Shown one piece after another: positions 18,776 through 41,470 of a stretch of 52,140 nt of DNA. This DNA is from a virus (taxonomy: Duplodnaviria; Heunggongvirae; Uroviricota; Caudoviricetes). Where the stretch lies: IMG/VR virus record IMGVR_UViG_3300023181_000001, positions 94,509 to 146,648 of that record, one strand, 5' to 3'. Every line of letters begins with the position of its first letter. Within the stretch, counting starts at the first letter, position 1. The notes below the pieces were generated by a model. That model searched no databases. It saw only the letters and a list, made by a program, of their open reading frames with translations, and had not been told where the DNA came from. The translations under genes were made by a program, and so were the position numbers.

Positions 18776-19522
18776 TTAATCTGTTATTTCTACCTTGTAA
18801 TTGTAAAGGGCTTCGTAGACTCTTGGGTCAATCAAATCTTTCCATTTGTCGGCAAGATTTTTGATGTGTGTTTCTTTAATTTTCTTATACGTTTCCCAAG
18901 CTTCTTCAGGAGTGTCAAAATATCCTGGAAAATCTTGATTTATTTTTAGGGGATAGCTTATTTGAAACCTTCTTTTCTTTGTGTTTTTGTAAACGCCCGT
19001 AGGATATAATCTACCTCTCTTTTGTATTTTTCTAAAAATCATATTTATTTCATGAGGTACAAATGCACAAGTTTCAGGAGAATAAATCTTATTTCCTTTA
19101 ATTAAAATATCTTTGTCTATTTCAAATCCTTGAACGTTGTTATCCTCAAACCATTGTGCAAAGTTTTGAAAGTTATGCCATTCTTCACAAACGGATACGT
19201 TATTGTATGTTGGAAATTCAAAAGACTCCTTTTTACCGTAGCATCTTTTAATTATACCCTTCCACGTTTGACTAATATTTAGATTCTTGGTAAACCCATA
19301 TTTACCTACCCCTTGAAACCCTACTCCCGCTATACTTCTAAAATTAGGGTTTTTTATACTTCCATTTTTAATATGCACAAAGTGTATATTCTTTAAAATT
19401 GTACCGTCATCAAATCTGACATCACAATCTTTACTTGTGCTATAGGCTATGATTTCTAAGTCACCTTGATTTGTAGTATACCTTTGACCGACCCTATCAG
19501 TCCTTCTTTCATTACTCCTCAT
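18776..19522 (-). CDS. HNH-like homing endonuclease with C-terminal AP2-like domain
   Basis: WKGIIKRCY, VSVCEEWHNFQNFAQWF, IDKDILIKGNKIYSPETCAFVP; AP2-like TGVY...GYFDTPEEAW. Confidence 0.8.
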   Translation of the reverse strand: MRSNERRTDRVGQRYTTNQGDLEIIAYSTSKDCDVRFDDGTILKNIHFVHIKNGSIKNPNFRSIAGVGFQGVGKYGFTKNLNISQTWKGIIKRCYGKKESFEFPTYNNVSVCEEWHNFQNFAQWFEDNNVQGFEIDKDILIKGNKIYSPETCAFVPHEINMIFRKIQKRGRLYPTGVYKNTKKRRFQISYPLKINQDFPGYFDTPEEAWETYKKIKETHIKNLADKWKDLIDPRVYEALYNYKVEITD

Positions 19523-22500
19523 TTTCTACTAAATTAGTTGCCCATGCCCACCCAAATATATTTTTCTTATCTGGACTGAGGTTAAAATAAGCATATGTAT
19601 TTCTCGCCTCTTCAAAGTTTTTAAATCTGTTGTAGTCTTTTATAAATGGTAAATTTTTAGAAGCCCATCTATACTGTTTTGAATCACCTGCAAAACTTCC
19701 TTGTGAAATAATATCTGTACTAAATAAATCGGTATTTAATAAGTCTTCTAACTTTCTTTTTGCAATAAGTGGGTCTGCTGACATCTCCTGTAACTGTAAA
19801 GGAAGAGCTACTGTACTTGATACTTGTTCAACCGCTGTTCTAGTTAAAAAATAATTAGCCATTGTCAAAATGTATGCTGGATCGTCATCGTCGTCGACTG
19901 CATTTGCTAATAATATCGCAGCTAATGCTAAAATATTGGCTATCGACAATTCAACAATAGTTCTTCTCAAATTTCTTTTTGAAACTTCATCCGTCATGTA
20001 TTCTTGCCAAATTCTCTTAATATCTTTAGGTTTTAATATATTCTTAGCAAGGTCATTTATCATATTGGCTGTAGTTCGCCAGTTGCCCTCCTGAAAACTG
20101 CCCTCAGAAATATTGTAATGGCGATTTTTGGTTTTCAGCTGTATAGAAATCAAAAACCAGTTAGCATGAAGTAGTAGAAAATTCGATCTAGCATCACGGC
20201 TTGCTATACTGCGTTGCTGGGATGGTATTTGACTGTCTACACGTTGCATTGCAGATGCAGTTCTAGTTGATATTGCCTCCAAAATCAAGTCTGTCTTGGC
20301 AACCGCTTCCTCTTCGCTAATATTTAACTGCTCAGAAATCCTAGTATAATTTGGTGCAATCACCCCATCTTTTACAGGAATTAAGTCTTTGAATAAAGGT
20401 TGTTTCTCCCAAAGTAATCTGTCATCTTTTCCATTATTAATTTCTTTGAATTGTCTGTATGTGACTACCTCGTTTCCATACACTCTGTAATCGTACATGA
20501 CTGACAACAGGACAGTCGTTGTTACTGGATAGTTGCCAATCGAATGGAGTCCCGAAGATGCTTTCAAAAGTCCTCTCCCTGCCCTACCTATGTAAGAGTT
20601 TTCAAACCTTTCTGTAAGGTTATATAAACCAAATCTTTCTCCGTAAACTCCTATCTCGGATTTTCCATTGTATTTCATCACCTCGCCAATCATTTGGGAA
20701 CCTTTCCTCGCAAATTCTTTCTGTGCCTCCTTGTAAGCCGTTCTGTCCAAAACTTCCCCCACAGCCACTTCTAAAAATTCTTGTGTCTTTCCTTGTAGGG
20801 CTGAAGTCAAAGGTACTGTCACACCCGCTAAATTTGAAAATCTTACCCAGCTGTTGAAAGTTCTTGCCAGTTTTCCTAAATCTACTTTTTTCCCTAAAAC
20901 TGTTACTTCTTGGCTGAATGTTTCTTTTACGCCATAGAAATTTGATTTTAGAAACGAGTTGAACATTTTATAGGTGTTTGTTGCCTCCGCTTTTTTGCCT
21001 GGATAATCTCTTTCTTTTGACAATATGAAATCTTCCAATACCAGCATATCTGAGATATTTTCTCTTCTTGCTTTGTATAATGCTGACTGTTGGTTGAACA
21101 TTGAGTAAGACAATAAAAGTTCGTCTGTTACATCTGTTTGGTCTTTTAGTTTTCTTACCCCGTAAGTCGGTACTGATAAAAGTGAATCTCCTTTTTTGGC
21201 GAGATTTCCTGATACATCCTGTCCTAAATCTGCTTCATCTTCTCTGATACCTGTCATATCTGAGGCGATTTCTTTTAGGGATTTTAGTTTATTTGAGCCG
21301 TCTGTTAATCTTCTTGTCGCGCTCCTTAAAAACTGCGGTAATTGGTATCTGTCATGTGTTGCTTGGATGCCATAATTTTCCAAGCTTTGATCGTTGTATT
21401 CTAGAAGTATTTTTCTTGCTTCGAACTCTTGAACGTTTTGCGTGGCGTTTCCTTGCTCGTCTATTCCATATCTTTGGTAGTATTCATCATTCCTTACAGA
21501 GTTTTTATAGGCTTCTGTGTATTGGTCTCTTTGCGCGTCACGATTTTCAATCCATTTAGGGTTTACATTTGCCATTGCGTCATAATAGCTCCAACTTGGT
21601 TTTACTTCTACTATACCGCTTTCAATAAAATCTAAAACTGCTCCCGATTGGTTTTCAGAGACATTTCTTTTTAGTTCTTCATAGGCTTCTGTAAATCCTT
21701 GCGGTTCTGTTCTTTTATAATACGGCAAAAGTTTTCTTCTGGCAAATTCTGATAAGACGTTATCATAGTCTGTTCTTCCATCAGTTAAGTTCCTTAAAAA
21801 ATCAGTCATTATGACAGACTCTCCTTTTTGTAACCTTTGTAAGTTTCTTCTCAGGGATTCTATACTGCTTCTGCCATTTGAAGTTACGTGTTTTAATATA
21901 AAATCAATTTCTTGGGGACTGTTTGAAGTGATTCCATTAGACTCTAAATCTTTTCTGTAGCTTTCATTAACTGTTGAAACTGATTGAATTTCCGTTGTTT
22001 CTTGTTCTTCTAGGATGTTTCTTGCCTCGGCGGTCTGAACTTCTAAAATAGATTGGGCATCCCTGACAGCTGACATTTCTATGTCATTCATATCAAATAC
22101 GTCTACCTCCGAAGGATTTGACATACTTTTATTTCCGCGAATTATTGTAGAGATTATTGACTGTTGTTCCCTAATGTTTTGTGCAAATTCTAAAGCTTCG
22201 GGCGAACCCACCTCCAAAAGTCTTGCCACCAAAGAGTTATTAGGATCAAAATTATCCCAGAAATCTTGAGTGAATGCGGTTGTTGCATTGTTATTTAAGA
22301 AGTCGAATTTTTCTTGCTCTGTACTTAAGCTATTTAATTCGTCTAAAAACTTCTGAGGGATTCCTTGTGAGTTTGAATTGGCTTTATAGAATTCTGAATT
22401 TAGAAGCATCAGGTTTTGCAATCCTACGACTTTTTGAGCTTCTGAAAAATCTAAATCCGATAAGTCTTCTGAGGCATCTAAAAAGTAAGTGAATTTCTTT

Positions 22501-25070
22501 AACTCTCTAGCATAGACTTCCAAAACTCCTTTTTTCAATTTTCCATCAGAATACCTTGGATTTGCTTCTTGGAGTTTTTGTTTTGTTAAATTTTTTATTT
22601 CCGCGATTTCACTTGAAGTGAGTTCTCCTTGTTTTTTTATTTCCCCGATTTGCGAGCGGTATAATTTATCCAACTGTAAGACATCATCTGGAATAGAAGT
22701 TCTATCAATTGTTACGCCGTTTGTTGTGATAGAAAAATTTTGAAGTTTCTCTAAGTATTTTGGATCAAAATAAGACTCAAATCTTTGAGTAAAAGTCTTT
22801 CTAAATTCTTTTTCCAAGTTGGCAAGCTGTCCTGATATTTCATCCCTATTTTGTGTTTTCTTATCAATGTCTTCTTGACTTAATTCTTTATTTGCTGTGA
22901 GATCTCTTTGCAAGGAATCATATTCGCTTTGCATAGAATCAACCTTTTCTTGAACTGTTTCTTTTGTTAGAGGCTCTCTTAAAATTACAGACAAAATTCT
23001 AGCTTTTTCTGTATTATCGACTTCTAATACTTTTTGAGGATCTGTTTCGTTTATTATCCCGCCATTATAGATAAGTTTCTTTAGTGTTGTAGGAATTTGA
23101 CTCTCTGGTAAGCCTAAAGCTTCTAAACGGTTTAAAAAAGGCTTAGTTTGGTTTTGATGTGTTGTTCTTTCTTGATATTGTGTTCTCTCTATAATTTCTC
23201 CCGCCAAATTTAAAAGTCCATCTCTTGAATTTATTAATCCTCCTAAGTGGGCATGCAACCAGCCTGTATCTGCTTCTGCTGTTCTTGAAATGTTGTCTAT
23301 ATACTCACGGTATTTATTAGCCTGTTCAGGAGTCATATTATTCTTTCTAATGACCCTCTCAACAATCAAATCTCTTGCTTTTGTGTTTGTTGCGGGAACT
23401 CTTCCTTCGATTGTAGAAATCTTTTGCAGAACATCGTCAATCTGCTTTGCAATAGCCTTGTCATTTATGCTTTCTCTGATTTGTCTCAGCATCGGAGCAA
23501 GTCTTGAAACTGTTGATTGAAATACTCCATTTTCTTCTGACGTGAAGTGTCTTGAATTTTTATCTGCAGTTTCTAAAGATTTCAAAAGTGAATTTGCTTG
23601 AGAATTTGCAACTGCTACTAATTGTAGAGTTGAATTTTTCAAGGAAGCTTCATCTGTAAGTGCAATTGTCTGTTTTAATTTATTTAAGGTGTTTTTATTC
23701 GCCGAGGAATTCCTTAGAGCATATTGCTGATTCAAGAGTGTTTCATAAGACTTCTGAATAGTTTGGGCTAAAGCTGTACGTCCTGTTGCATTATAGAGCG
23801 TATAAGACTTGTTCTCCTTGTTTCTTACATCTACGTCCAAGGAGTCATTCATAAGGTCTCTATAGACTTGTTCTGTGAATGTTTCTAGTTGGGTTTGATA
23901 ATTTGGCTGAAAGAAGTCATAAACTCTATTAAAGAAGTCTTTGAAGAAGTTTCTTAAAGTTGCAACAATACCGCCTTCCAAAGTAGTTTCACTTTCTCTT
24001 GCAAAATTATCTAAAAGTGAATTAGCTAAAACCTTTCCTAAAATTTCTTCTCTGACAGCATCTTCTAAGCCTTCTCCCTCTAAAGTTTCTGAGTAGATTT
24101 CAAAATATTGCTCGGCAAATTCCGCCCACTCTTTAGTTCTATGTACATTTCTTTTTTGGTTTGCTATCTGCTCTTGATCTAGAGTGGCAATAATAAAGTG
24201 GCTTACTTCCTCCGTTAAATCTGCTTGCGTTATGATACCGTCTTTAAAGGCTACAATGTTATTTGCCAAATCTGCTAGAGCTTTTGCCGATGGTTCATAA
24301 CCATTCTTTTGAGCATATTTTTCCGCCCACTTTTCAATGGATGTAGTCTTTACGCCTAACTTGTTTAATAGCTGTAATAGTTTCTCTTGTAGTTGATTTT
24401 CAGGGATGATTTGAATTTCTTCTAAAGCAGAATTATTTGCATTGGTTTCCAAACTTATCTCTTCTAAAGTCTTAATAAAAACGGCTGTAGACTCGTCAAA
24501 TCTTTGAGTAAGCTGGGTAAAAGTTTCTGATTTGGGAACTTCCTGTCTTTCTCTGAAAGTAATATTATTATCCTGTCCAACTAAGGCTGAAAATGCACCT
24601 TTATATCGTTTTGAAACTGTTCTGGCTACATCGGCGTAGACCGCTTTTTCCTGTTCGTTGTTTCCTGTTACTTCTAAGACTTTTGCTCCATCAACATCTA
24701 AAAAAGAATTCCCTGTAAGAATATCTTCTTTGATTAGAGAATTTACTAGTCCTGAACGGGTCTGAGGATTTATTGTAGTGTCAATTGTCATGAAAGACTT
24801 TCCGTTTGTAACTACTTGGATTTCAGAATTTGGTTTGCTGTTTTTAAGAGCCTCTTTTAAAGTTTGAAATTCTTGACCTTGGTTTTGAAAGCTGATTGGG
24901 GATTCTTCATTGTTATTATCCGCTAAAATATTTGTATATCCTTTTAGAGCTTCTTGAAAGTCTTGGATATGTGGGATATTGAGTATTTGATTGAAAACTA
25001 AAGAAGGTCTGCCATCAAGAGCGTTTACTCCAACTTGTCTACCATTCTTATAAATTATTTCGCACGCCAT
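19512..25070 (-). CDS. very large ejection/cargo protein (1852 aa): MxC N-terminal domain, zincin-like module, C-terminal hydrophobic helix
   Basis: Size and position in the virion cluster; LTEEVSHFII plus EEILG; TIVELSIANILALAAILLANAV. Confidence 0.7.
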   Translation of the reverse strand: MACEIIYKNGRQVGVNALDGRPSLVFNQILNIPHIQDFQEALKGYTNILADNNNEESPISFQNQGQEFQTLKEALKNSKPNSEIQVVTNGKSFMTIDTTINPQTRSGLVNSLIKEDILTGNSFLDVDGAKVLEVTGNNEQEKAVYADVARTVSKRYKGAFSALVGQDNNITFRERQEVPKSETFTQLTQRFDESTAVFIKTLEEISLETNANNSALEEIQIIPENQLQEKLLQLLNKLGVKTTSIEKWAEKYAQKNGYEPSAKALADLANNIVAFKDGIITQADLTEEVSHFIIATLDQEQIANQKRNVHRTKEWAEFAEQYFEIYSETLEGEGLEDAVREEILGKVLANSLLDNFARESETTLEGGIVATLRNFFKDFFNRVYDFFQPNYQTQLETFTEQVYRDLMNDSLDVDVRNKENKSYTLYNATGRTALAQTIQKSYETLLNQQYALRNSSANKNTLNKLKQTIALTDEASLKNSTLQLVAVANSQANSLLKSLETADKNSRHFTSEENGVFQSTVSRLAPMLRQIRESINDKAIAKQIDDVLQKISTIEGRVPATNTKARDLIVERVIRKNNMTPEQANKYREYIDNISRTAEADTGWLHAHLGGLINSRDGLLNLAGEIIERTQYQERTTHQNQTKPFLNRLEALGLPESQIPTTLKKLIYNGGIINETDPQKVLEVDNTEKARILSVILREPLTKETVQEKVDSMQSEYDSLQRDLTANKELSQEDIDKKTQNRDEISGQLANLEKEFRKTFTQRFESYFDPKYLEKLQNFSITTNGVTIDRTSIPDDVLQLDKLYRSQIGEIKKQGELTSSEIAEIKNLTKQKLQEANPRYSDGKLKKGVLEVYARELKKFTYFLDASEDLSDLDFSEAQKVVGLQNLMLLNSEFYKANSNSQGIPQKFLDELNSLSTEQEKFDFLNNNATTAFTQDFWDNFDPNNSLVARLLEVGSPEALEFAQNIREQQSIISTIIRGNKSMSNPSEVDVFDMNDIEMSAVRDAQSILEVQTAEARNILEEQETTEIQSVSTVNESYRKDLESNGITSNSPQEIDFILKHVTSNGRSSIESLRRNLQRLQKGESVIMTDFLRNLTDGRTDYDNVLSEFARRKLLPYYKRTEPQGFTEAYEELKRNVSENQSGAVLDFIESGIVEVKPSWSYYDAMANVNPKWIENRDAQRDQYTEAYKNSVRNDEYYQRYGIDEQGNATQNVQEFEARKILLEYNDQSLENYGIQATHDRYQLPQFLRSATRRLTDGSNKLKSLKEIASDMTGIREDEADLGQDVSGNLAKKGDSLLSVPTYGVRKLKDQTDVTDELLLSYSMFNQQSALYKARRENISDMLVLEDFILSKERDYPGKKAEATNTYKMFNSFLKSNFYGVKETFSQEVTVLGKKVDLGKLARTFNSWVRFSNLAGVTVPLTSALQGKTQEFLEVAVGEVLDRTAYKEAQKEFARKGSQMIGEVMKYNGKSEIGVYGERFGLYNLTERFENSYIGRAGRGLLKASSGLHSIGNYPVTTTVLLSVMYDYRVYGNEVVTYRQFKEINNGKDDRLLWEKQPLFKDLIPVKDGVIAPNYTRISEQLNISEEEAVAKTDLILEAISTRTASAMQRVDSQIPSQQRSIASRDARSNFLLLHANWFLISIQLKTKNRHYNISEGSFQEGNWRTTANMINDLAKNILKPKDIKRIWQEYMTDEVSKRNLRRTIVELSIANILALAAILLANAVDDDDDPAYILTMANYFLTRTAVEQVSSTVALPLQLQEMSADPLIAKRKLEDLLNTDLFSTDIISQGSFAGDSKQYRWASKNLPFIKDYNRFKNFEEARNTYAYFNLSPDKKNIFGWAWATNLVENEE

Positions 25071-25071
25071 T

Positions 25072-26013
25072 TTATTGTTTTAAGTTTTTGAATATATGGG
25101 CTATGACATCTACTGTCCAACCGTTACCGAGCATTTTATATCTTTGTGTGTCACTTACTGAATCGGTGTAGTTATCAGGGACTGTTTGTAACCGTTCACA
25201 TTCTTTAGGTGTAAATTTTCTATATGGTTGACCTATTTCAATCATATTTTTGGGAGTGACGTTTTTCCCTGTGCCGTGCGCTAATTCTGTGGTTAAGCAA
25301 GCTGATTTACCTGTTGCTTGATAATTCTTGGCATATTTTAATTGAGTAATTATAGTCTCCTTAGATAAATAGTATTTTAAGTCCACTATTAAGCCAAACT
25401 TACTTCTTTTTAACATACTTTTTACATTTTCCTTATGTATAGTTGAAAGTATTGTTTGGCTTTTCTCTTTTAGGGCACTACCTGTCTCTAATATATCATT
25501 TACAAAAATTCCTTTATCTTCAGGTTGGTCTACGTTTGGAATGTTTGTCCAGTATAATCTCTTTCTATTTTGTGCCGATAATAAGCTACTATTAATCTCA
25601 ATAGGTTCTATACCTAAATATTTAGAGATTATATCTTGAGACTCTTTTTTCATTTTCACATTCTCTAAGAGAAATTTTACATTAGGATTGACAACTTTAA
25701 TTTCGTCTAAAATCCTAACGTATTCAAAAAATAACTTACTTCTTTCGTCTTCAAAATTTAATTGCTTACCTGCAAAACTAAAGCCTTGACACGGACTTCC
25801 ACCGATTATTAAATCAATTTTTTGCTCTGACCAATTAATATTTTTAAGTTCTGTAACTGAGCCTAGTTGAATAATGTTAGAATAGTTTGCTTGTGATACC
25901 CTAATTGCATACTTATCAATTTCAGAAGCATAATAACTATCAACTTTTATTTTGGCTCTTTCTAAAGCAATCATTCCGCAAGACATCCCATCAAACAATG
26001 ATAATACGTTCAT
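25072..26013 (-). CDS. C5 DNA cytosine methyltransferase
   Basis: Motif I LSLFDGMSCG, IV GGSPCQGFS, VI LLENV, VIII QNRKRLYW, IX TPKECERLQT, X LGNGWTVDVI. Confidence 0.93.
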   Translation of the reverse strand: MNVLSLFDGMSCGMIALERAKIKVDSYYASEIDKYAIRVSQANYSNIIQLGSVTELKNINWSEQKIDLIIGGSPCQGFSFAGKQLNFEDERSKLFFEYVRILDEIKVVNPNVKFLLENVKMKKESQDIISKYLGIEPIEINSSLLSAQNRKRLYWTNIPNVDQPEDKGIFVNDILETGSALKEKSQTILSTIHKENVKSMLKRSKFGLIVDLKYYLSKETIITQLKYAKNYQATGKSACLTTELAHGTGKNVTPKNMIEIGQPYRKFTPKECERLQTVPDNYTDSVSDTQRYKMLGNGWTVDVIAHIFKNLKQ

Positions 26014-26029
26014 ATTTATATATTTTCAG

Positions 26030-26037
26030 CAAAAATA
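26030..26037 (-). promoter_or_regulatory. putative -7 element TATTTTTG for the methyltransferase
   Basis: TAnnTTTGC match in a 34-nt gap. Confidence 0.55.
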
Positions 26038-26047
26038 GAAAAATTAA

Positions 26048-28345
26048 TTAACAATCAAAACTTTCTTTTAATATATTTTTTGCTTTTGTGGAATCTTTAA
26101 CATTTGAATTGTCTGACATACTTGCTTTCAAGTCAAAGTCATATTCATTGAATTGTGGTTTTGGATTTCCAAAGGTGTTATATTGCGACTTGTTTACCAT
26201 TTGTCTTTTAAATAAACTTTTGCCGTTTTGGGTGAATACATTTTCCCAAAAACTTCCATCTTGTCTTTTAGTAAATCTATCTTGGCTATCCGATATTAAG
26301 GTTTCTGAATCTACTATTGTGGGACTTTGCATCAGAGGTGCCGTTTGTGGGTTGTTCACGTAAAAATCTCTTTCTTTTTGAGAGATGTCTGGATTCTCAT
26401 CTAAAGTAGTTTGATTTAGATTTGGCATTTGTTTTGATATCAAAGAGTATTGTCTTAAATTTTCATCAGCTAACTCTTCTACTGTTGAAAGTGTTAAATC
26501 ATCTGTATACTTTAAATTTATCCCTTGCTCATTAATTTCAAAGTTTGAATAGAAATTGAGCCACATTGGAGAATTCTTTTTCTTTTCTCTTAGGGATTTT
26601 ATATTGAATTCTGCCACGAAATCATTTGTAAGGTATTCGTAGTTTCCTGTGAAAGCAGTTTCATTTATACCCTCACTAATTCCCTCATTTAAACCATCAA
26701 ATCCTAAAATAGTTTTAAATAAATTTATTTTTTCTGCTGTTTCTCTTTCGGATGATTCTATTCTCAGAGCCTGTCTTTGGTTTTCTTGTCGTGTTAGGTT
26801 TGCGTTGTAATAGGAAGCAATATCGTAAAGCTCTTCTAAAGTTTTATCATTAACTTGAACATAAACGTTTTCCGCTTTTTTTATCGCCCCGATTTGATTG
26901 AAAACTTCACCCTCACTCAAAGCTGTTCTTAGATATATGTAATCTCTGTCATCAGGCTGTTTTATTGCTTTTGTTTCTTGGATTTGGCTTGGAAAGAATT
27001 CTGAATAAAGCTTAGAAAATGTTGCTAAATTCTCCTGTACAGGATTTTCCATAACGCCTCCTAAAGCATTTAAGAAAGGTTTCAGAGTTGGATTATCTGC
27101 TTGGTCTTTTATACCTATTACATCTATTCCCATTTTCAAGGCTTCGTTTTCGATATTGCTCAAAGTCCTGTAAGTTTCTTGCGGATTTTCTAGAAGAGTT
27201 TCGTCTGAGATATTTGTAATCTTAACGATTGCAGAAACTGCTTTGTAAGGATTTTCTAAAATTGTAGCAGAAATTGCCAAACGGTCTCCTAAATTAGGTT
27301 CTACTATCGAACCGTCTATATCTGCTAAAACTCTTGCTTTTACAAATGATTGTGCTTCTTCTAAAGTTATAAAAGGATTTTCTTGAAACATGTCTTCCTC
27401 CACGCCAGCAATTTCCTCCATCAAATCTTGTTTTAGATGGTTTGGGTTTTCGTAAAGAGCTTTTCCAAACTTTCCTATGGTGTTTGATTTTACTAACTGT
27501 TGTTGCGGTATCTCTTGTTCTGTGACTATATCAAATTCCGTATTTTGAAATGCTTCTAAACTTTCTTTTATTTGATTTTGTAGGCTCGGTGATTTCAAGA
27601 TTCTATCAATTTCATATTGCGAATATAGAGATTGCATTTTTTGTGGAACTATTGTAAAAAAGTTTTCTTGGTCATAAAATACTTTGTTCATCTCCGCTTT
27701 TAAATCTCCTTGAAATCCTAAAGATAAGTTTTTAAGTTCTATTCTTTCCTCTGTGTCAAGTTCCCTTTGTGTGCGGTTTTGATTCCTCAGGAATTCCAAA
27801 ACGCTTTGCATTGAGGGTTCGCCGTTTGGATAGCTGTTTTGGAGTAGGAACTGATATCTGCCGTCTGGTGTCTGCTCGGCAAGATTATCCCTTACAAGAG
27901 ATTCCCAAACATTCAAATCATCTTGACTTGAAGCATTATCACTTTTTAGTTGTACTCCTCTTTGAAATAAATCTTTAGCCACTTGCCTGTAAAGACTCTT
28001 TCCATATCCTTTGCCCTTGAAAGTGTCATAAATAGTTATCATATCTACCCTGTCCCCTTTTATTCTGAGAGTTCCAATCCTTTTTCCTCTGATTGTCGGA
28101 ATATAGGAGATTGAGTTTCCATTTATTTGCCTAGAAAGTCTTACATCAGTTTGGTTCACTGAATATAATAAGGCATTCTTGGCTCTGTTTACAGTTTCAA
28201 AAGCCTCTGATTTAGAAGCCTTATAGATTTCTAAAGCTTCTTCTTGGGTGAATTTTTCTTTCAGTTCCTGGAAAAGCAATGACGGAGTATTTTGATCCGT
28301 CACTACCGTTACCTGTCCATTTTCTCTTATTATATTACAGCTCAC
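26048..28345 (-). CDS. cargo/polyvalent protein (765 aa, GTG start) with MxC N-terminal domain and GNAT acetyltransferase domain
   Basis: N-terminus aligns with the 1852-aa protein; GNAT motif A FKGKGYGKSLY; ends in Cys. Confidence 0.7.
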   Translation of the reverse strand: MSCNIIRENGQVTVVTDQNTPSLLFQELKEKFTQEEALEIYKASKSEAFETVNRAKNALLYSVNQTDVRLSRQINGNSISYIPTIRGKRIGTLRIKGDRVDMITIYDTFKGKGYGKSLYRQVAKDLFQRGVQLKSDNASSQDDLNVWESLVRDNLAEQTPDGRYQFLLQNSYPNGEPSMQSVLEFLRNQNRTQRELDTEERIELKNLSLGFQGDLKAEMNKVFYDQENFFTIVPQKMQSLYSQYEIDRILKSPSLQNQIKESLEAFQNTEFDIVTEQEIPQQQLVKSNTIGKFGKALYENPNHLKQDLMEEIAGVEEDMFQENPFITLEEAQSFVKARVLADIDGSIVEPNLGDRLAISATILENPYKAVSAIVKITNISDETLLENPQETYRTLSNIENEALKMGIDVIGIKDQADNPTLKPFLNALGGVMENPVQENLATFSKLYSEFFPSQIQETKAIKQPDDRDYIYLRTALSEGEVFNQIGAIKKAENVYVQVNDKTLEELYDIASYYNANLTRQENQRQALRIESSERETAEKINLFKTILGFDGLNEGISEGINETAFTGNYEYLTNDFVAEFNIKSLREKKKNSPMWLNFYSNFEINEQGINLKYTDDLTLSTVEELADENLRQYSLISKQMPNLNQTTLDENPDISQKERDFYVNNPQTAPLMQSPTIVDSETLISDSQDRFTKRQDGSFWENVFTQNGKSLFKRQMVNKSQYNTFGNPKPQFNEYDFDLKASMSDNSNVKDSTKAKNILKESFDC

Positions 28346-28712
28346 TATTTTTATTTATTTCAATTGCTTTATTGGCTCCGTATAAACCTTCTTGTAATAT
28401 TTTATTTAGGTTTTCTATCCTCGATTCATAAAAATTCTTAGTATGCGCAGTTACCATCTCTAATAAATATTTAAAATCATCGCCAGTATAAGTACTATAA
28501 TAACCTATCTCACCTAGTCTCATATCTATTATTCCTGTCGGTTCCGTAAAAGAATTTGCTATTTCCACACATATTGAAATTGCGCCATCTACTATATTTA
28601 TACTGTATTCACTATTAGCAACTATTAATTCAAACCCACCTTTTTTAGTTCTCAATTTTTTAAGCACCAAAAGAACTTTCGCTTTTTCCTCTTTTCGTCT
28701 TTTTAAATTCAT
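28335..28712 (-). CDS. hypothetical protein (inserted island)
   Basis: Co-oriented ORF overlapping the 765-aa start by 11 nt. Confidence 0.55.
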   Translation of the reverse strand: MNLKRRKEEKAKVLLVLKKLRTKKGGFELIVANSEYSINIVDGAISICVEIANSFTEPTGIIDMRLGEIGYYSTYTGDDFKYLLEMVTAHTKNFYESRIENLNKILQEGLYGANKAIEINKNSEL

Positions 28713-28747
28713 CTTATATTTTTATTCATGTAATTTTTGATCCATTT

Positions 28748-28960
28748 TTATTTTTTCTTTAATAGTTTCAAGGCTACTTCTGATTCTTTTTCAAACTCAT
28801 CTTTCAAACTCAATTCTAAATCTATTTGTTTCTTGTGGATACGAGATATTTCTTTTATATCACCCTTACCATCTTCGAGCCAATTTTTAACTAGCTTCGT
28901 ACATTCTTTTTCAGAGTCTATACAATCTTGTAAGTTTTGTGGAATTTTATAATTAATCAT
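28748..28960 (-). CDS. hypothetical protein (inserted island)
   Basis: Co-oriented ORF. Confidence 0.55.
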   Translation of the reverse strand: MINYKIPQNLQDCIDSEKECTKLVKNWLEDGKGDIKEISRIHKKQIDLELSLKDEFEKESEVALKLLKKK

Positions 28961-28974
28961 TTTTTTTCTATTAG

Positions 28975-29343
28975 TTAGTAAGTTGCGTAAAAATCTTCTT
29001 TATCTATTACTATGGCGACCTCGCCTGCCTTAAAGTCTTTAAAATCTAAACTCCATATTTTATCTATGACTTGTTTTAATGCTTTTTCGGTTATTCCGTA
29101 ATTGTGGTTAATTATAAAAGTCATTAATGTTGACCTTAATTCCTCATCTAAAATATTATCTCCTACAAAATGAACTCTTTTGCACGTCTTGTCTGCTTCA
29201 TATATTGATATAAATTCTATCAGGGGTACTGTACTCCTTTTATTTATTTCTTTTTTATGCCAGTTTTTACATTCAACAGATTCTAAGATACAACCAGCTT
29301 CAGTATATTTTATTGGTGAGTATTTTTCTAAAAAGTCATTCAT
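28975..29343 (-). CDS. hypothetical protein (inserted island)
   Basis: Co-oriented ORF with 4-nt overlap. Confidence 0.6.
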   Translation of the reverse strand: MNDFLEKYSPIKYTEAGCILESVECKNWHKKEINKRSTVPLIEFISIYEADKTCKRVHFVGDNILDEELRSTLMTFIINHNYGITEKALKQVIDKIWSLDFKDFKAGEVAIVIDKEDFYATY

Positions 29344-29603
29344 AGTTTTTGCCCTGGTTGTAGTGTAAATCTATACGTCAATTCCCCTTTTTCTTGTGCC
29401 TCTTTCATGCCTTTGTATAAATCTGTTGATTTGTCCATAGACTCCAAATTCTGAATTTCTACACCTGCTGTTACTAATACTTTTAAGTTATAGAAATTAT
29501 TCAAACCTACCTCTTCTAATAATTTTCTTACTTCTTCTTCTGTATAAAGCCTAGTTGGTAAAAGTACAGGGATTATATGATTTGGATATTTTTCTTTTTT
29601 CAT
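29340..29603 (-). CDS. hypothetical protein (inserted island)
   Basis: Co-oriented ORF. Confidence 0.6.
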   Translation of the reverse strand: MKKEKYPNHIIPVLLPTRLYTEEEVRKLLEEVGLNNFYNLKVLVTAGVEIQNLESMDKSTDLYKGMKEAQEKGELTYRFTLQPGQKL

Positions 29604-29604
29604 A

Positions 29605-30279
29605 TTATTGTGATAATGGCATTCCTGTTAGTAAATATTCTCCTTTTAATACGGACTCCTTTTGTTGTTTATCGTAGATATCAAAAATAATTACATCTCC
29701 GTTTTCTTCTACTCTTGTAACTATATAAGTGATCCCATCTTGTTCAAGGGTGCAGTTTGACTTTAAATATTCTGTTGCTTTTTCTAAATTAAGATGTTGT
29801 TTTACATACTTTTCAGTAATATTATTATCTAATTCCTCATATGTTACCCTAGTTTGTTCCAATTGTTTATATTCTTCGCTTTTGGAATCCAATAGTGACA
29901 TTGCAGTCGTCAAACCGCTTATATTCCCTTGATAAAACATACTTTTATCATTATCTTTGTAGGAATAAATGACTTTAACAGAATTCATAGGAAGTTTTCT
30001 TAAATAGTCTTCTGTTACTCTTCCGCTCAGTGCTAAATAGTAGTTTTCCAATTCTTGTAAATCCTCCATATCCGCAATGTCTTTATTTATCCACCCTTCT
30101 GGAAATTCTTGCAGACCTGTGATTGGGAACCAAGTTAAAGTATTATTTAGTTTCTCTCTTATGTTACGATTCTCAACATGATCCTGATTTTTGCAGGCAA
30201 TAGAATAAAAATTTTTAAATTCCTTAAAATCTTCTAATCGTGTTAAATCTAATTTTTCAATTCTACTTTTAAAATTCAT
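29605..30279 (-). CDS. hypothetical protein, first gene of the inserted island
   Basis: 224-aa ORF downstream of its own TATATTTG element. Confidence 0.7.
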   Translation of the reverse strand: MNFKSRIEKLDLTRLEDFKEFKNFYSIACKNQDHVENRNIREKLNNTLTWFPITGLQEFPEGWINKDIADMEDLQELENYYLALSGRVTEDYLRKLPMNSVKVIYSYKDNDKSMFYQGNISGLTTAMSLLDSKSEEYKQLEQTRVTYEELDNNITEKYVKQHLNLEKATEYLKSNCTLEQDGITYIVTRVEENGDVIIFDIYDKQQKESVLKGEYLLTGMPLSQ

Positions 30280-30297
30280 TTTTATATAATTTAATGG

Positions 30298-30335
30298 TAG
30301 GAAGCAAATATAATCTAAATATACTTAACTTCCTA
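30298..30335 (-). promoter_or_regulatory. 15-bp hairpin whose 3' arm contains a -7 element (TATATTTG, 30305-30312)
   Basis: TAGGAAG(T)TAAGTATA-loop TTTAGAT-TATATTTGCTTCCTA. Confidence 0.6.
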
Positions 30336-30340
30336 ATATT

Positions 30341-33300
30341 TTAACATTTAGTGTTGTTATTGCCTGATTTCAGAATATCTTCTTTAGGTTTTACTTGTTT
30401 GTTGATGTTATCTAAAATACCGAAAAGAATCTTAATCCTTTCAATCTTATCGTTTCCTACAGCATCCCTCAAAATCTTATTTTTAGAGAAATCCACTTTG
30501 AAAGCTTCTCTTAAAATTCGTATGTTGTGAAGTTTATCAAGGTGCGAATTACTTTCCAGCATACTTTCTTCGTCAAAAGCATCCGTATAGGAATTTTCTA
30601 TGATATCTCCTTTGGAATTTACATAAGTTGTGGAAGCATTTCTTATGAAGTCATTATAAAGGTCTTTTGCTAAAGTATCTAATTCATTTTCCACCGAAGT
30701 TTTGACATCTGATGTATCAAAGGTTGCTTCTTGATTGAAAAGCATATTTTGAATATCTATTCTTACTTTTGGAGCATTGATTACCTGTTCTAGATTATCT
30801 GCGTCAATATACATTTGAGCGTCAACTAAGAGATTTGCTTTATTATAATCTTGTGAGGCTATTTCATCTGCTGTTGTGAAAATTAAATGTTCTTGAAAAA
30901 CTGTTCTGATTCTTTCAAGATTTTCATCTGTAACTTCTTGCGGTAATATCTTCTCGGTTCTGACTCCCTCTTGGTTAATCAGGGCGTTTAAATTCTTTGC
31001 AATCTCTATCGGACTTGTTGCTGTCTCTAAAGCATTCTCCACCATATCTAATCCTCTCTGACCTAAAGGCGACTTATTCAAAAATATTGGTAAAGCTACG
31101 TAATTTTCGCCTCTTTTTACAACCACCAAGGGCATTTTTCTTTGAGGGTATTTTCTTGAAATTTTAGATACGTAAGAAGTATTTACTTGTGGTAGGTCTT
31201 CTGATGTTACGATTTCGCCATTTAAAATATATCCTTTAGTCAAAACTTTATCCAATGAAGTTTCTGTAAACGGTCTTGATTCTAACTGCCCGTCTTCTGA
31301 AATGAAAAATTGAGGACTCCCTAAAAATACTGCCGAAACTGTAGAAGTTGCTTCCAAATCTACTTCATAGCTGTCTTGGATAGCTAATTCAAAAGCTTTT
31401 TCTCTTAGAAGCTTGAAATTATCAGGTGATGCGCCTCTTTCTCCTTTTAAGGTAGAAATTCTCTTACCTTTAGATACTAAATAAATTTTAATACCGTCTG
31501 TTAAAGCTTTTCGATTTTCTTCATTAGGGGATTTCTTGTATTTATCTAGAAGCTGTTTTGTATAGCTGTCCTGCCTATCAATTTCAAATCTTATAGGTGC
31601 GCCTTGTTCAAGATTATAAATTTCATCTGCTTGAATATCTTCAAAAAAGTCTGAAGGTTTCTTTACATACTCTGAACCATTAAAATAGTATAAATCAGCA
31701 TATGTCCAGCTTGTAGAGGCACTCCTCACCACCAAAAGAGGGATGTTATCAAATGCTTCACTCCTCATTTTCAAGATGTTTCCTGGCTCTATTGAAAACA
31801 TTAATCCGCTTTCTGTCGTAACTATATCGCCTATTGCGATTTGCGATATGTCAATAGGTTTGTCTTTTCTTGTAGCTTGGAAAGGCTCCCCTATGATATT
31901 TACCAGAGATTGTGCTGATATGTGATGCAAAGTCACAGAGCCGTCTTTATTTCTCTTTATTGTAGCATTTCCTGTGACATTTTGCGCCAGAGTATAATCA
32001 TCAAGTTTTTCTCCTGCTTGGGATTCTTGAGTCATAGCATAGGAATCATCTTCTGTGATTTCAGTTATGGTTTCTTGCTCTGAAATATTCTGCTGTTGCT
32101 GTTGAATCAATTCTGCAAGGTCAGCCATTGTCAGTCCTTCCTCATTTATGAAACTGTCTAAAACTTTCCAATTTGATAGTTTTTCTCTTAGTAGTTCTAA
32201 TCTATCTACGTTTACTACCGAAGGTTGGGTAAAAATTTCTACAAGTCTTGGATTTGCAGTTAATGTTCCTTTTTGGTCTAAATCGATAGTTACTAGTTCC
32301 CCTTCAATTGAAGTAACCGTTCCTCGGTCGGTCAGAGTACTTACCCTTTGGCCTACTATTAATTCAGAAGAGTTTTCCACTTCTCTTCTTTTCGGACTTC
32401 TCTGTCTTAAAAGATTTCTTTCTTCCTCTGTTAGCGATTCTAAAGCTAGTCTTTCTGCTTCTGATTCACTGTTTCCATTGGCTAAAAGTGTTTCATATAA
32501 GTTGTCAAGTTTTTGATAGAGTGTTGCTTTTTCTCCCGTTTCTCCTCTTAATAGATTTTGATACTCTTCTACTTCTGCTTGTGTTGGTTTTTCTAAAAGA
32601 AACTCATCTGTTGAAGTTCCAATAAAAGTCAAGGAGTTATTAGACCTAGAAACTAAATTAGCAAGTCTTTCTCTTAAGTATTGAAGTTTAGTTTTAGCTG
32701 TTGGTAAAGGTACAACTGGAAGCATAGGTTCTCTTTTCATAAAAGTATCTATCTCCGTCTTATTTTCGTTGTAGTACGTTTGCTCCTCCTCTGATAAAGT
32801 ATCTCCTCTTCTTCTCTTATCTACTATAGATTCGTTTGAAATAACAGTAGTTCTATTGTTAATTTTAGTTAACTCATTTAAAGCATCTACAGCTTGTTTT
32901 GAGTAATTTCCTAAAATTTCTGACAGCCATTCTTTTGTTGCCGAGTCTAAGTTTTTGTTCTTTTTTAAGACTTTGCGTCCAACTAAAGTATTGATGTTAT
33001 CAATGTTTACTTTTCCATCCCTAAAAGCTAATACAGTTGATTGATAAGCTCCAAATGTTTTTCTAGAGTTCTTGTACTCTTCTAAAATTGCTTCAAGTCT
33101 GGCAGAATTTTCAGGATTAGAAGCTTTTATAGCATCCATTACAGACCCTAAATTTTTAGTATTTGAATCAAGATTTTTTAAGTCCTCTACGCTGATATTC
33201 TGAATATCTAAACCTTGATTTAGGTTTACGCCTGTAGTCTGTTCTAGAGTTTTGTTATTTAGATTTACTTCATCTGCAAGTTGCTGTAATTCTGTGTTAT

Positions 33301-35575
33301 TAGAATCAATCAGGTTTGTAAGTTTTGCAAGCCTGTCAGATAACCTCAAAACTTTAGTTCCTGTGTCAGTATCCCCTTGCGTGGTTTCCTGAATATTTCT
33401 TAACTGTTCTATAAGTCTTCTTCTTTGCTCCTCTAAAGAATTGCTTCTGTTTATAGCAATATTTACTTGATTTCTTTTTTCTTGAGTTACTGTTTCTAAG
33501 CTAGATATTGTATCTAAAGCCTTTACTTTTTCATAATCTAAAATCTGAGCCATTTCTTGAACAGCTTCCTTCATTGTAGTATGTGACCTCTGCCCGCCCA
33601 TCATTGTGAAAGCTAGACTTTGTATTAGAGCTTCTTGAGTGTTATTTGCCCCTAAAGAGGATAATTGATTTTCAGAATCTAATTCCTGTATTCCTGCAAC
33701 AGGGTTTCTACCTATTATGTATTCCGCAAACTGTCTGTTCTTTTTGAAAGATTTTGCAACTTCGGAGAACGCTGTTGACTGTTCTTGCTTCCAAGTGTCT
33801 AAATCAGTTTCTACTCCCATTTCTATTAGCTGGTCTTGCGTAACTGTTCCTAAAGCTTTTTCAATATCTAAACCTACGTCTGAAACAGAATCTCCTAACT
33901 GGTAACGGTTGTTTAAAAGTGAAAATATTACTCCGTCTTGTGCTATCCTAGCTTCTGTAAGATTGCCTCTTTTTTGGGCATCTTCTGACTGTTTATTAAA
34001 TCCGTTAATACGGTTCATCATCAAGAAATGCTCTGACAATGCTTTTGAAGTATAAGTTTCATTTAATTTTGAACGGTTCTCAAATTCTTGAACTTGCCTG
34101 TTTATACCTCCTCTTGTATTTCCTGTCCCAGCCTCTCCTAAAAGACCGATAATAATACCTACTCCATTCTCAACCCATCCTTCTTTTGAACCATATTGGT
34201 GAGAAATATTTTCATATAAAGCTCCTGCTAAATCAAAGGAATCTTTTGTGTTGTTTGTGTCATAGGCGTACTCTAGCCATTTTCCTGCTGTAGCTGAAGT
34301 AATTGATTGACCCCCTTCTTCATAAAGTCCCTCGGTTACTGCGTTTTGAACAAAGGGTAATATTCTTCTATTAATGGATTGGAGTCTTGAAGGCGTTGCT
34401 TTTCCTATTCCGTACAATGCTCTGTTGTACATCTCGCCAAAACCTGTTTTTACAGGTGATTTTAAATTAAATACTCTTCCTAGAGTTACTAAATTAGAAC
34501 TTCCTACCAAAGCCATGTTCACACCAAAAACTGCATTTGCAGAGGAGCTTAGATTTTCTTGGAAAGCTGTTATCTCTTCTTGGTCGGGTTGTCTTCCATT
34601 CTGTTCTTGAAAATTTCTATAAAAGTTTTCCTCCTGTTCTTTTTTATATTGCAGAGCTTCCACCGATGCTTCATATCCTGCCGAAGTCATTGTAAATCTT
34701 AAAGTGTTTAAAGCATCTCCCGCCTTACCAAAAGCTACAGCTCTTCCCACGTTTATAGAATCATCTACCAATCCCGTACCTACTCTTGCTATATCTTCTC
34801 CTACTGTGAGTGAATTTTTTAAAAGTCTTGAAAACTTTGAAGTGCCGCTAGCTATTCTTGCCATACCTGCTGTTCTTGTAGACCATCTTGCGGCAGTAGT
34901 AGCTAGAGAAGTTCCTCCTGTTGCATAAGCCCATATACCCTCTGATACAATTGCTCCTGCTGTAAAAGACAATCCTCCTAGAACTTTGTCCGCCCAAAAA
35001 TTAGAAGTGAATAATTGTCCTCCCAATCCTTTTTGCGTTTCCTGTTGCGTGTAGTAGTTAGGAAGATTGTAGTTCATTTTGGTATCTAAATCTCCTAACC
35101 AATTTGAAAAATTATTATCGTAAACAGAGTCAAATTTCCAATCTGCTATTCCTGCACCTGCGCCATAAACAACCCCTGCGGTTCCGCCTATGACTGCATT
35201 TAAAGTCTTTCCTCCAAATTTAGCTAAGCCATTAAGCCACTTTTCTCCTGTTCCTTGATTTTGTGCATGAATCTCATTATTGTTTGCTCCTTCTTTATAA
35301 GTATCATATTTTGCTATGTAAGTACCATCATTAAGTTGAGCATAAGCATCATTTATATTGTAATTTTTCGACTCTAATGCTATCTTTTGAGGGCTGTTAA
35401 TGGGAGCCTTATAAAAATAGTCATTATCGGTTTTAATATTGCTTATAATTCCATTAGTTTTAGAAGGGTCTATTTGAGGAGTACTTGCTCTAGTTCTAAT
35501 ATCTTGTTCAACTGCCTGAAGTTCTGGCGAAATAGTTTTATTATCTATAAGCGCATTTAAGTTGTTATCTGCCAT
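30341..35575 (-). CDS. very large ejection/cargo protein (1744 aa) with N-terminal Gly/Ala-rich hydrophobic helices
   Basis: TLNAVIGGTAGVVYGAGAGIA, VLGGLSFTAGAIVSEGIWAYATGG, TEGLYEEGGQ; helical body; ends in Cys. Confidence 0.75.
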   Translation of the reverse strand: MADNNLNALIDNKTISPELQAVEQDIRTRASTPQIDPSKTNGIISNIKTDNDYFYKAPINSPQKIALESKNYNINDAYAQLNDGTYIAKYDTYKEGANNNEIHAQNQGTGEKWLNGLAKFGGKTLNAVIGGTAGVVYGAGAGIADWKFDSVYDNNFSNWLGDLDTKMNYNLPNYYTQQETQKGLGGQLFTSNFWADKVLGGLSFTAGAIVSEGIWAYATGGTSLATTAARWSTRTAGMARIASGTSKFSRLLKNSLTVGEDIARVGTGLVDDSINVGRAVAFGKAGDALNTLRFTMTSAGYEASVEALQYKKEQEENFYRNFQEQNGRQPDQEEITAFQENLSSSANAVFGVNMALVGSSNLVTLGRVFNLKSPVKTGFGEMYNRALYGIGKATPSRLQSINRRILPFVQNAVTEGLYEEGGQSITSATAGKWLEYAYDTNNTKDSFDLAGALYENISHQYGSKEGWVENGVGIIIGLLGEAGTGNTRGGINRQVQEFENRSKLNETYTSKALSEHFLMMNRINGFNKQSEDAQKRGNLTEARIAQDGVIFSLLNNRYQLGDSVSDVGLDIEKALGTVTQDQLIEMGVETDLDTWKQEQSTAFSEVAKSFKKNRQFAEYIIGRNPVAGIQELDSENQLSSLGANNTQEALIQSLAFTMMGGQRSHTTMKEAVQEMAQILDYEKVKALDTISSLETVTQEKRNQVNIAINRSNSLEEQRRRLIEQLRNIQETTQGDTDTGTKVLRLSDRLAKLTNLIDSNNTELQQLADEVNLNNKTLEQTTGVNLNQGLDIQNISVEDLKNLDSNTKNLGSVMDAIKASNPENSARLEAILEEYKNSRKTFGAYQSTVLAFRDGKVNIDNINTLVGRKVLKKNKNLDSATKEWLSEILGNYSKQAVDALNELTKINNRTTVISNESIVDKRRRGDTLSEEEQTYYNENKTEIDTFMKREPMLPVVPLPTAKTKLQYLRERLANLVSRSNNSLTFIGTSTDEFLLEKPTQAEVEEYQNLLRGETGEKATLYQKLDNLYETLLANGNSESEAERLALESLTEEERNLLRQRSPKRREVENSSELIVGQRVSTLTDRGTVTSIEGELVTIDLDQKGTLTANPRLVEIFTQPSVVNVDRLELLREKLSNWKVLDSFINEEGLTMADLAELIQQQQQNISEQETITEITEDDSYAMTQESQAGEKLDDYTLAQNVTGNATIKRNKDGSVTLHHISAQSLVNIIGEPFQATRKDKPIDISQIAIGDIVTTESGLMFSIEPGNILKMRSEAFDNIPLLVVRSASTSWTYADLYYFNGSEYVKKPSDFFEDIQADEIYNLEQGAPIRFEIDRQDSYTKQLLDKYKKSPNEENRKALTDGIKIYLVSKGKRISTLKGERGASPDNFKLLREKAFELAIQDSYEVDLEATSTVSAVFLGSPQFFISEDGQLESRPFTETSLDKVLTKGYILNGEIVTSEDLPQVNTSYVSKISRKYPQRKMPLVVVKRGENYVALPIFLNKSPLGQRGLDMVENALETATSPIEIAKNLNALINQEGVRTEKILPQEVTDENLERIRTVFQEHLIFTTADEIASQDYNKANLLVDAQMYIDADNLEQVINAPKVRIDIQNMLFNQEATFDTSDVKTSVENELDTLAKDLYNDFIRNASTTYVNSKGDIIENSYTDAFDEESMLESNSHLDKLHNIRILREAFKVDFSKNKILRDAVGNDKIERIKILFGILDNINKQVKPKEDILKSGNNNTKC

Positions 35576-38213: not shown

Positions 38214-38226
38214 TTGTTTAGAATTT

Positions 38227-38262
38227 AAATAAAAATGCCCACTTCTTGATGTAAAGCAGGCA
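38227..38262 (-). terminator. intrinsic terminator after the 1053-aa gene
   Basis: 9-bp stem TGCCTGCTT/AAGTGGGCA (two G-U pairs), 9-nt loop, then TTTTTATTT. Confidence 0.6.
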
Positions 38263-38292
38263 AATTTAATGATTTAATTTGAGTTATACAAA
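38261..38292 (-). promoter_or_regulatory. canonical Bacteroidota promoter TTTG-N20-TAAATTTG
   Basis: -33 TTTG at 38289-38292, -7 at 38261-38268, 20-nt spacer. Confidence 0.75.
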
Positions 38293-38308
38293 TTCGTTAA
38301 TTGAAAAT

Positions 38309-41300: not shown

Positions 41301-41470
41301 GGATTATACCCACTATAGACTGACATTCCCGAATTCGGATTTTGTTGGTTTTGTGGAAATTGGAACGGTGAAAAATAATCATATCTTGACATAGGATTAT
41401 TTGGATCAAATCCTCCGCCAAATTGCATTTTTGGTAATGTAAGGAATTTTTTTAAATTATCTAAGCTCAT
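38309..41470 (-). CDS. Gln/Pro-rich modular cargo protein (1053 aa) with repeated x-[QEA]-x-GG motifs
   Basis: Low-complexity linkers; VEIEKNE...GETHEKGG block; seven GG motifs. Confidence 0.7.
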   Translation of the reverse strand: MSLDNLKKFLTLPKMQFGGGFDPNNPMSRYDYFSPFQFPQNQQNPNSGMSVYSGYNPDLQYQQANPYYGMSVNSGYAPAQAPAPDINWLSDLTKTMSQNIQSAQNPVTPIAQNTSTVQTPPLNAYDDGSTPQLGAISSNYKSPQRNISNLNTQGGYQFNTSGNDVTAGQALDAQTNYNKQQAEQPLKLFNPFGGVDVSAALQYGFYNAGQGNGGQATLGFGKGLLGLSRQGFSAYGAGKEQRNLMNQQNNQPIYNSTPLEKGGFVDYMQKGGSVSVGKFLSGKYITDSSDQNVEIEKNEFVLNAKDGQVQKAIGETHEKGGIKTNLPEGSQVLSDHTKIGAKNAKELSKELDIKVKAKNTFADVLDKYSKKIGVEKNIEEGEKLVNQTEETLKLEETDTKQINLDFIQQETARIEQEKEELNTQQQEAFKTIFDKQESQKGSFLQEGGETVAPAAQEEEINPNDIVVQVQQAVAQGTPIEEIVNNLLSMGYSEDEASQIIQASQSEQQPQMAEGGVAGEPGARIGDFLKSANLIAQSKGVEPPKLDLEKGDITKNWTELQNWFVKNAPEEVIRYFDEQPITNKGMEILLKNNKTSLKNLGIDTNRSPNSFTLEEKRAIQEAIPLDDKFILEQFADGKVDYRFPQVSANSLSSITPQAQAINASLAQPSGNGFQEQVMTAQDVQATDNNTQQNSAQRGRNVIPMLPVVEGLTPSAALIPRADQVRFNRLEPTLRTPEASIAAINNQTNFVNQQAFQSNPNLAPFLTATNLGTTQQSVNKAIAETDAYNAEAVNRANTYNANVGDKEQLMNINLGQNYEQRLFKTIDNQEQAWSRYLVNKQLQNKQNWMDVNNLNLTNAMTPNYQTDGSNVYFSNPRDYSTRSEEDIQFDNWYRNATPQEQIAYRNSVIAKKQDGGYIYEFEDGAQPMTDQQAREVAQATGFTEDFAREYFRQQGANQTPQYQQAPQRPRVNLETDMIADITSGTNRYTPDGGVIVGDYKKVWLNNRPETFTARAQPQEGRDFTYLSPQDFVKFQQSQNYKQYKSGYKTSNIASR

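Follow-up and report, generated by a model that had tools for sequence, protein, structure and literature searches.

Why would three large virion proteins, encoded in the same region, be free of cysteine except at the ends by which they could be joined head to tail? The question is raised by a 52,140 nt stretch of viral DNA (positions 94,509 to 146,648 of the IMG/VR record IMGVR_UViG_3300023181_000001), here called the window, which makes up the final 52 kb of a complete 146,648 bp virus record with direct terminal repeats. The named relatives of the phage are the Cellulophaga phages phi4:1 and phi17:2 (genus Lightbulbvirus), and it is not placed in the Crassvirales. All genes of the region are on the minus strand. 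In the order of transcription, the three proteins are A (1744 aa, 30341–35575), which belongs to the virion structural protein family PHROG 32390 and is like gp039 of phi17:2; B (765 aa, 26048–28345), which consists of an N-terminal head domain, a weak GNAT-like stretch and a region like gp038 of phi17:2 (PHROG 29175); and C (1852 aa, 19512–25070), which belongs to the virion structural protein family PHROG 37651 and is like gp036 of phi17:2. A preliminary description of the window had proposed that they form a chain in which the C-terminal tail of each protein docks into the N-terminal head of the next and is locked there through Cys. The distribution of cysteines and heads in this phage and its relatives supports that reading, and points to A as the first, B as the middle and C as the last link.

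The translations match the termini as originally read, in that A and B end in Cys and C does not. The single Cys of A is its last residue (residue 1744, codon 30344–30346, the last before the stop), in the end ...SGNNNTKC. B contains only two, at residue 3 (codon 28337–28339) and at the last residue, 765 (codon 26051–26053); it begins (GTG)SCNIIRENG and ends ...ILKESFDC, and its last 15 residues (...KAKNILKESFDC) occupy 26051–26095. The single Cys of C is residue 3 (codon 25062–25064), and the protein begins MACEIIYKNG and ends ...VENEE. The start codon of B is GTG (28343–28345), directly before Ser-Cys, and in L003, a relative that is 93% identical, B starts with TTG at the same position (L003:6747–6749). 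As there are in-frame stop codons three codons upstream of the starts of B and C, both starts are firm.

The preliminary description had called these proteins Cys-poor; the depletion is real but was understated, as apart from their termini A, B and C contain no Cys at all. Relative to the other open reading frames (ORFs) of at least 150 aa in the genome, in which 1.11% of residues are Cys, A, B and C together have 4 Cys in 4,361 residues where 48.5 were expected (Poisson P = 2e-16). The chance that all four would lie no more than six residues from their respective ends is approximately 7e-10. The terminal-Cys observation is confirmed and is far beyond chance. Three virion proteins encoded upstream of A (808, 1053 and 882 aa; 35565–43893, minus strand) have no Cys and are part of the same Cys-depleted block, but they lack terminal Cys and lack a head. 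For the block of six, 4 Cys were observed and 79 expected (P = 9e-29), so that in the six consecutive virion proteins (808, 1053, 882, 1744, 765 and 1852 aa; 7,104 residues) the four terminal Cys are the only ones. A 565 aa virion structural protein encoded elsewhere in the genome is likewise Cys-free.

Comparison with relatives revealed the same placement. Of the 119 homologs of A, 118 contain just one Cys, and the last Cys is never more than five residues from the C-terminal end (0–5 in all 119); together they comprise 207,844 residues and 120 Cys. Nearly all of the 41 homologs of C (P0004–P0044; 1,832–3,119 aa; down to 25% identity) have one Cys, at position 3–6, the exceptions being two with miscalled starts and two others with extra internal Cys. 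Cys3 of C is invariant in an alignment of 33 sequences (alignment A1). When the head profile, which has 53 positions, was compared with 1.84 billion representative sequences, 1,044 clusters were returned, with the match almost always beginning at residue 1. The first Cys is at position 3–6 in 136 of 138 new head representatives, and the remaining two are a miscalled start and a chimeric fragment. Head-bearing proteins of at least 1,500 aa contain one Cys in 42 of 49 cases, while mid-sized head-bearing proteins contain exactly two, at both ends, in 16 of 24; the remainder may be truncated.

The chain order was read in every readable locus. In 79 viral contigs and nine more, the first link carries Cys in its tail alone, middle links carry it in both head and tail, and the last link carries it in its head alone, with chains of two, three or four links. 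The outermost ends, namely the N-terminus of A and the C-terminus of C, carry Cys in no lineage. The preliminary description had expected genes that end in a Cys codon to be followed, in relatives, by genes for head-bearing proteins, and this is what was found: each readable relative has a Cys-ending chain protein, then a protein that starts with a Cys head.

The heads of B (residues 1–50; 28196–28345) and C (residues 1–54; 24909–25070), both on the minus strand, were originally recognized as homologous. Alignments and a hidden Markov model (HMM) of the head agree, and the HMM matches only B (E 9e-15) and C (E 2e-18) in the whole genome. Cys is the sole invariant residue in the alignment of the domain. 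An AlphaFold2 model of the C head predicts a beta-hairpin and two helices, with a predicted local distance difference test score of about 80 over residues 1–55, and the Cys is modelled just before the first strand. A fold search of PDB and BFVD with this model found no significant match, and the only notable one was to the N-terminus of a phi17:2 structural protein. The head is not in Pfam. Judged by its profile matches, we conclude that it is a new N-terminal domain family of approximately 50 aa with more than 1,000 clusters.

The tails are another matter. The ends of A and B had been described as two homologous K..K..ILK...C tails, but this likeness is not kept in relatives, where the A and B tails are different motifs, SG[NK][NK]N[TS][KE]C and [IL][ND]x[ED]x[FL]xC, respectively. 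In an alignment of 22 B tails, no column but that of the Cys is invariant, the residue that precedes the tail Cys is not conserved in the A family, and A tails and B tails have in common only the terminal Cys. No conserved His, Asp, Glu or second Cys is present in the alignments of head or tail. Apart from this Cys, neither the head nor the B tail has an invariant residue, which is more in keeping with a linking function than with a site for catalysis or metal binding, and a paired thiol link would be the simplest reading of the conservation of one Cys on each side. A complex prediction for the C head (alignment A3) and the B tail (alignment A2), made without controls, gave a score of 0.00 with low confidence for both chains, and counts neither way.

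Differences in gene content between lineages bear directly on which tail belongs with which head. Five independent rearrangements fit a chain that has been cut differently in different lineages, with the Cys pair following the cut. In L007, a 2713 aa protein (P0035) is a fusion of B and C, in which residues 5–609 match B and residues 928–2713 match C from its residue 65 on; it contains a single Cys and lacks the tail of B as well as the head of C. The 2353 aa protein of L017 is an A–B fusion with a single Cys near the C-terminal end, from which the Cys pair of the junction and the head are absent. The opposite is seen in L018, where A is split. The first piece matches residues 312–825 of A and ends ...IIKLKC, and the second begins MACEIIYNGK, matches residues 952–1532 of A and ends ...NEDCK; a ferritin-like ORF (L018:1935–2470) lies between the two. 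In L094, it is C that is split, into a 375 aa protein that combines a C-type head and ART-PolyVal/LPD23 with Cys at residue 3 and at the last residue, and a 2080 aa protein that starts MACYLYKG. Neither the new tail nor the new head is present in P0031, a fused relative that is 63% identical to the split C of L094. C is also split in L095, where a 128 aa mini-link is followed by GIY-YIG nuclease genes (L095:2997–7027) and then by the remainder of C. An ORF of 78 aa that overlaps the start of the last link in L095 (L095:9777–10013) ends ...FLQCRK, with Cys two residues from the end, and is either a further mini-link or a coincidence. No internal copy of the head was found among 120 head matches.

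The split in A of L018 (1891–1935 with 2470–2520) and the split in C of L094 (9784–9828 with 10001–10050) share a tail-head pair type, in which a tail ...NII(K/E)x(K/V)xC goes with a variant head MAC.[IL][IY]..GK.YT..E[FL]. These two cases, and only these two, hint at matched tail-head cassettes that may move as a unit. The preliminary description had suggested that new cargo modules can be inserted into the chain. New links do arise, by the splitting of existing proteins, but extra effector domains are mostly found inside B or C.

Because fusions lose the Cys pair and fissions gain it, the tail of one link and the head of the next appear to belong together and to stand in for a peptide bond. 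We consider it probable that A, B and C are connected head to tail through these Cys residues, and that the chemistry of the connection is a disulfide. The three proteins would then be pieces of one functional virion super-protein of approximately 4,400 residues. After translation, the tail of A would meet the head of B and the tail of B the head of C, and the single Cys residues of the two sides would be joined covalently, most likely as a disulfide, when the particle reaches oxidising surroundings. As each Cys lies 0–5 residues from a chain end and there are no others, the product would be an almost unbranched thread without internal cross-links. As a thread of this kind, the proteins could be taken up into the particle's head in a fixed order and a 1:1:1 ratio and be pulled, partly unfolded, through the narrow tail; in the reducing cytoplasm the thread would come apart.

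Several points weigh against this proposal. Virion assembly takes place in the reducing cytoplasm, and no sulfhydryl oxidase (Erv1/ALR), thioredoxin or glutaredoxin is detectable in the complete genome; oxidation would therefore have to be spontaneous, after lysis. The A tails are of low complexity and variable, and specific docking to B heads is not evident from their sequences. Finally, extra internal Cys are tolerated in a few lineages, with nine Cys in the B protein of L025 and two to three extra in B and C of the L021-type clade.

A metal ion such as Zn, Cu(I) or Fe that bridges the tail Cys and the head Cys would follow the same pairing logic as a disulfide, and could form in the reducing cytoplasm during assembly with no need for an oxidase. 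The chain would then be non-covalent and would be freed by loss of the metal. However, each side offers one invariant residue, and no conserved His, Asp, Glu or second Cys is available in head or tail to complete a site. Two thiolates by themselves would suit the common structural metals badly, unless several copies came together. As a single residue is conserved on each side, a catalytic or classical metal site is unlikely, and we regard the metal bridge as an improbable substitute for the disulfide.

The terminal Cys might also have nothing to do with one another, and serve instead in disulfides of homodimers (A–A or C–C), in contacts with another virion component or in a membrane-anchoring modification such as acylation. 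Terminal modifications too need terminal positions, and a fusion would remove the two sites together, paired or not. The distribution of the residues argues otherwise, as the outermost ends never carry Cys, while ends made by a split always do, and always as a tail-plus-head pair. In addition, the neighbouring virion proteins have no Cys with which to pair, and no lipobox or known modification motif is present. Separate uses of this kind are about as unlikely as a metal bridge.

Returning to the disulfide-linked chain, a broader role is conceivable. Tentatively, the tail-Cys/head-Cys pair may be a portable repair, at the protein level, for gene fission, and so a reversible counterpart of split inteins; we think this possible but not the likelier outcome. 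If it is true, giant injected proteins could be broken anywhere by inserted mobile or accessory genes, with the pieces re-joined as a single unbranched thread for packaging and ejection, and reduction in the host cytoplasm would free the pieces as separate effectors.

Split inteins give split genes the same service, which raises the question of whether the Cys residues are instead the reactive groups of an intein-like or native-chemical-ligation-like reaction via a thioester, either joining the pieces through a peptide or thioester bond or cleaving the few residues beyond the Cys. The positions are suggestive, as the head Cys directly precedes the first beta-strand in a small N-terminal domain, and only 0–2 leaving residues follow the C-terminal Cys. 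However, the head of approximately 50 residues lacks the conserved His, Asn and Thr blocks that mark a Hint domain, and its fold has no match. Its Cys is at position 3–6 behind a variable leader rather than at the alpha-amino end, so that additional processing would be required for an S-to-N shift. As noted above, the position before the tail Cys is not conserved. Ligation or transfer is thus very unlikely.

The junctions between the genes provide a further line of evidence. The order of A, B and C (1744, 765 and 1852 aa) is as first described, but they do not follow each other directly. Five small ORFs (224, 87, 122, 70 and 125 aa; 28335–30279) separate A from B, and a DNA methyltransferase gene (25072–26013; PHROG 116, E 1e-72) separates B from C, all on the minus strand and outside the chain. 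The start of B overlaps the stop of the upstream ORF, with its Cys3 codon within TGTAA, and the start of C is 1 nt after the stop of the methyltransferase gene. In L003, the five ORFs between A and B are absent and only 4 nt separate the A stop from the B start. In phi17:2, the genes for A and B overlap directly, such that the codon for the tail Cys of gp039 overlaps that for the head Cys of gp038, whereas the window has mobile or accessory genes at both junctions. Across lineages, junctions consist of overlaps, spacers of 1–4 nt or kilobases of inserted genes, and the Cys residues are retained throughout.

A cause at the DNA level, in which an overlapping stop or start forces a Cys codon, was considered and rejected because the layout of the junction differs between lineages: the layouts vary yet the Cys stay. 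That the terminal Cys are a functionless by-product of a general avoidance of Cys in virion proteins, several others of which are Cys-free, combined with codon or overlap constraints at gene boundaries such as those at Cys3 of B and at gp039/gp038, is hardly credible, as the Cys does not vary across hundreds of clusters with identities as low as 25%, despite lineage-specific junction architecture, and neutral residues would not persist in this way. As a separate observation, the chain junctions are hot spots for accessory and mobile genes, which are the methyltransferase gene, the five small ORFs and an HNH endonuclease gene in the window, and ferritin-like and GIY-YIG genes in relatives.

The HNH endonuclease gene (18776–19522) comes after C in the series. 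At the upstream start of the series is a Cys-rich protein of 2459 aa with 36 Cys (43871–51250). The 808 aa virion protein has a transglycosylase domain at its N-terminus, and as in phi17:2 the block of A, B and C is downstream of a transglycosylase-bearing tail or internal protein. No match above the Pfam cut-off was found for A, B or C. Just after the head of B, residues 100–132 (27950–28046) give a sub-threshold GNAT-like match (Pfam FR47, 16.4 bits; cut-off 22.1). Residues 1704–1722 of C (19905–19961), TIVELSIANILALAAILLA, have a Kyte-Doolittle value of 2.19 and are transmembrane-like, and are the only strong hydrophobic segment in the six-protein block. This segment falls inside the C-terminal region that is homologous to gp65 of crAss-like phages (see below). 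Nearly all C proteins close with a short acidic run (...ENEE, ...EEEEE or ...DEE; 19515–19535 in the window; homologs P0004–P0044), which is a conserved feature of the last link.

How podoviruses store megadalton amounts of protein, order them and pass them through the tail is a question that bears also on crAss-like phages, which are the most abundant phages of the gut. A covalent, reducible end-to-end tie, if true, would explain a fixed stoichiometry, the order of exit and the release of the parts inside the cell, and would also account for these proteins being kept free of cysteine. A tail Cys followed by a Cys head can serve as a marker of ORFs that belong to one ejection chain, and of sites of gene fission and fusion. 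As phi4:1, phi17:2 and phi14:2, which infect Cellulophaga baltica, are cultured, the idea of a chain is directly testable. Searches of open-access papers and preprints on ejection proteins, polyvalent proteins, crAss cargo and the phi14:2 RNA polymerase gave no account of the terminal-Cys rule, and we judge the feature to be new.

Among the closest known systems is the virion structural protein block of phi4:1 and phi17:2. In phi17:2, gp039, gp038 and gp036 are directly, if distantly, homologous to A, B and C, and their genes have the same order (tblastn, PHROG 32390/29175/37651 and synteny). They obey the same rule: the only Cys of gp039 (1957 aa) is the final residue, gp038 contains two, in MASC... 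and ...KCN, and gp036 (1914 aa) contains one, in MSC.... The homolog of B, gp038, is shorter (517 aa) and shares 27% identity with B. The virion structural label of the phi17:2 proteins is an annotation by similarity to proteins of phi4:1, and the phi4:1 and phi17:2 records carry no functional annotation of the termini.

The cargo block of crAss-like phages (gp67, gp66 and gp65 in phi14:2; gp47, gp50 and gp49 in crAss001) likewise comprises three giant virion-packaged proteins in the same order. In phi14:2, all three were found in the virion by tandem mass spectrometry, and gp66 is the virion RNA polymerase. Their Cys follow the rule of A, B and C, at residue 1797 of 1797 in g067, at residues 3 and 2179 of 2180 in g066, and at residue 3 only in g065. 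When the C-family HMM was used to query g065 (hmmsearch --max), positions 1394–1854 matched residues 942–1408 with E 1.1e-24. On this profile match, we conclude that the C-terminal approximately 460 aa of C are homologous to crAss-like gp65. The head HMM has a weak match to the N-terminus of phi14:2 gp66 (E 0.002), and the relationship between A and gp67 is marginal (BLAST E 0.001 over 362 aa; best HMM domain E 4e-4, with a full-sequence score that is not significant).

The middle link is where the two systems part. It is an RNA polymerase in the crAss-like block, whereas here it is a variable link of 517–2,571 aa that is not an RNA polymerase. BLAST found no gp66 homolog in the 146.6 kb genome, and a motif scan found no DFDxD motif in A, B or C, though a very remote relationship is possible. 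The genome has relatives of the cargo proteins that flank gp66, marginally so in the case of gp67, but, by BLAST, no homolog of the virion RNA polymerase. As read from the termini, the terminal-Cys rule extends to a second lineage, outside the Crassvirales, which has a different and highly variable middle module. The proposed thread agrees with published work on crAss-like phages, whose three giant cargo proteins are virion components and occur in some phages as one fused polyprotein (10.1101/2020.03.07.982082). The cargo proteins of crAss001 must partly unfold to leave through the tail, the sequence in which they leave is believed to depend on how they interact with each other, and disulfides between subunits are present in the virions (PMC10172136). 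Terminal cysteines are not mentioned in either paper.

Other systems resemble the chain in part. The ejection proteins gp14, gp15 and gp16 of T7 and gp50–gp52 of N4 are likewise large, are kept in the head and leave the particle ahead of the DNA, and one neighbour of the chain carries a transglycosylase domain, but we found no sequence relationship between them and the chain proteins. To our knowledge, no covalent end-to-end link between podovirus ejection proteins has been described, and none was found in the open-access papers and preprints searched. The polyvalent proteins of phages and conjugative elements are also giant, multi-domain and delivered with the DNA, and LPD23, ART-PolyVal, Kinase-PolyVal and poly(A) polymerase plus HD modules occur in homologs of C and B. 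A polyvalent protein is one polypeptide, believed to be cut into parts by a built-in peptidase (Iyer et al. 2017, PMC5512222), whereas here separate chains appear to be joined. Pfam identified no peptidase family (processing MPTase) in A, B, C or P0035, and the polyvalent-protein paper (PMC5512222) makes no mention of cysteine or disulfides. With split inteins, the chain shares a common logic, as pieces of a gene, often parted by mobile genes, would find each other by terminal modules in which Cys is key, and would be rejoined once translated. Unlike split inteins, however, the chain proteins have no Hint fold or intein blocks and a head of only approximately 50 aa, and the modules would stay in the product, joined by a bond that is expected to be reversible.

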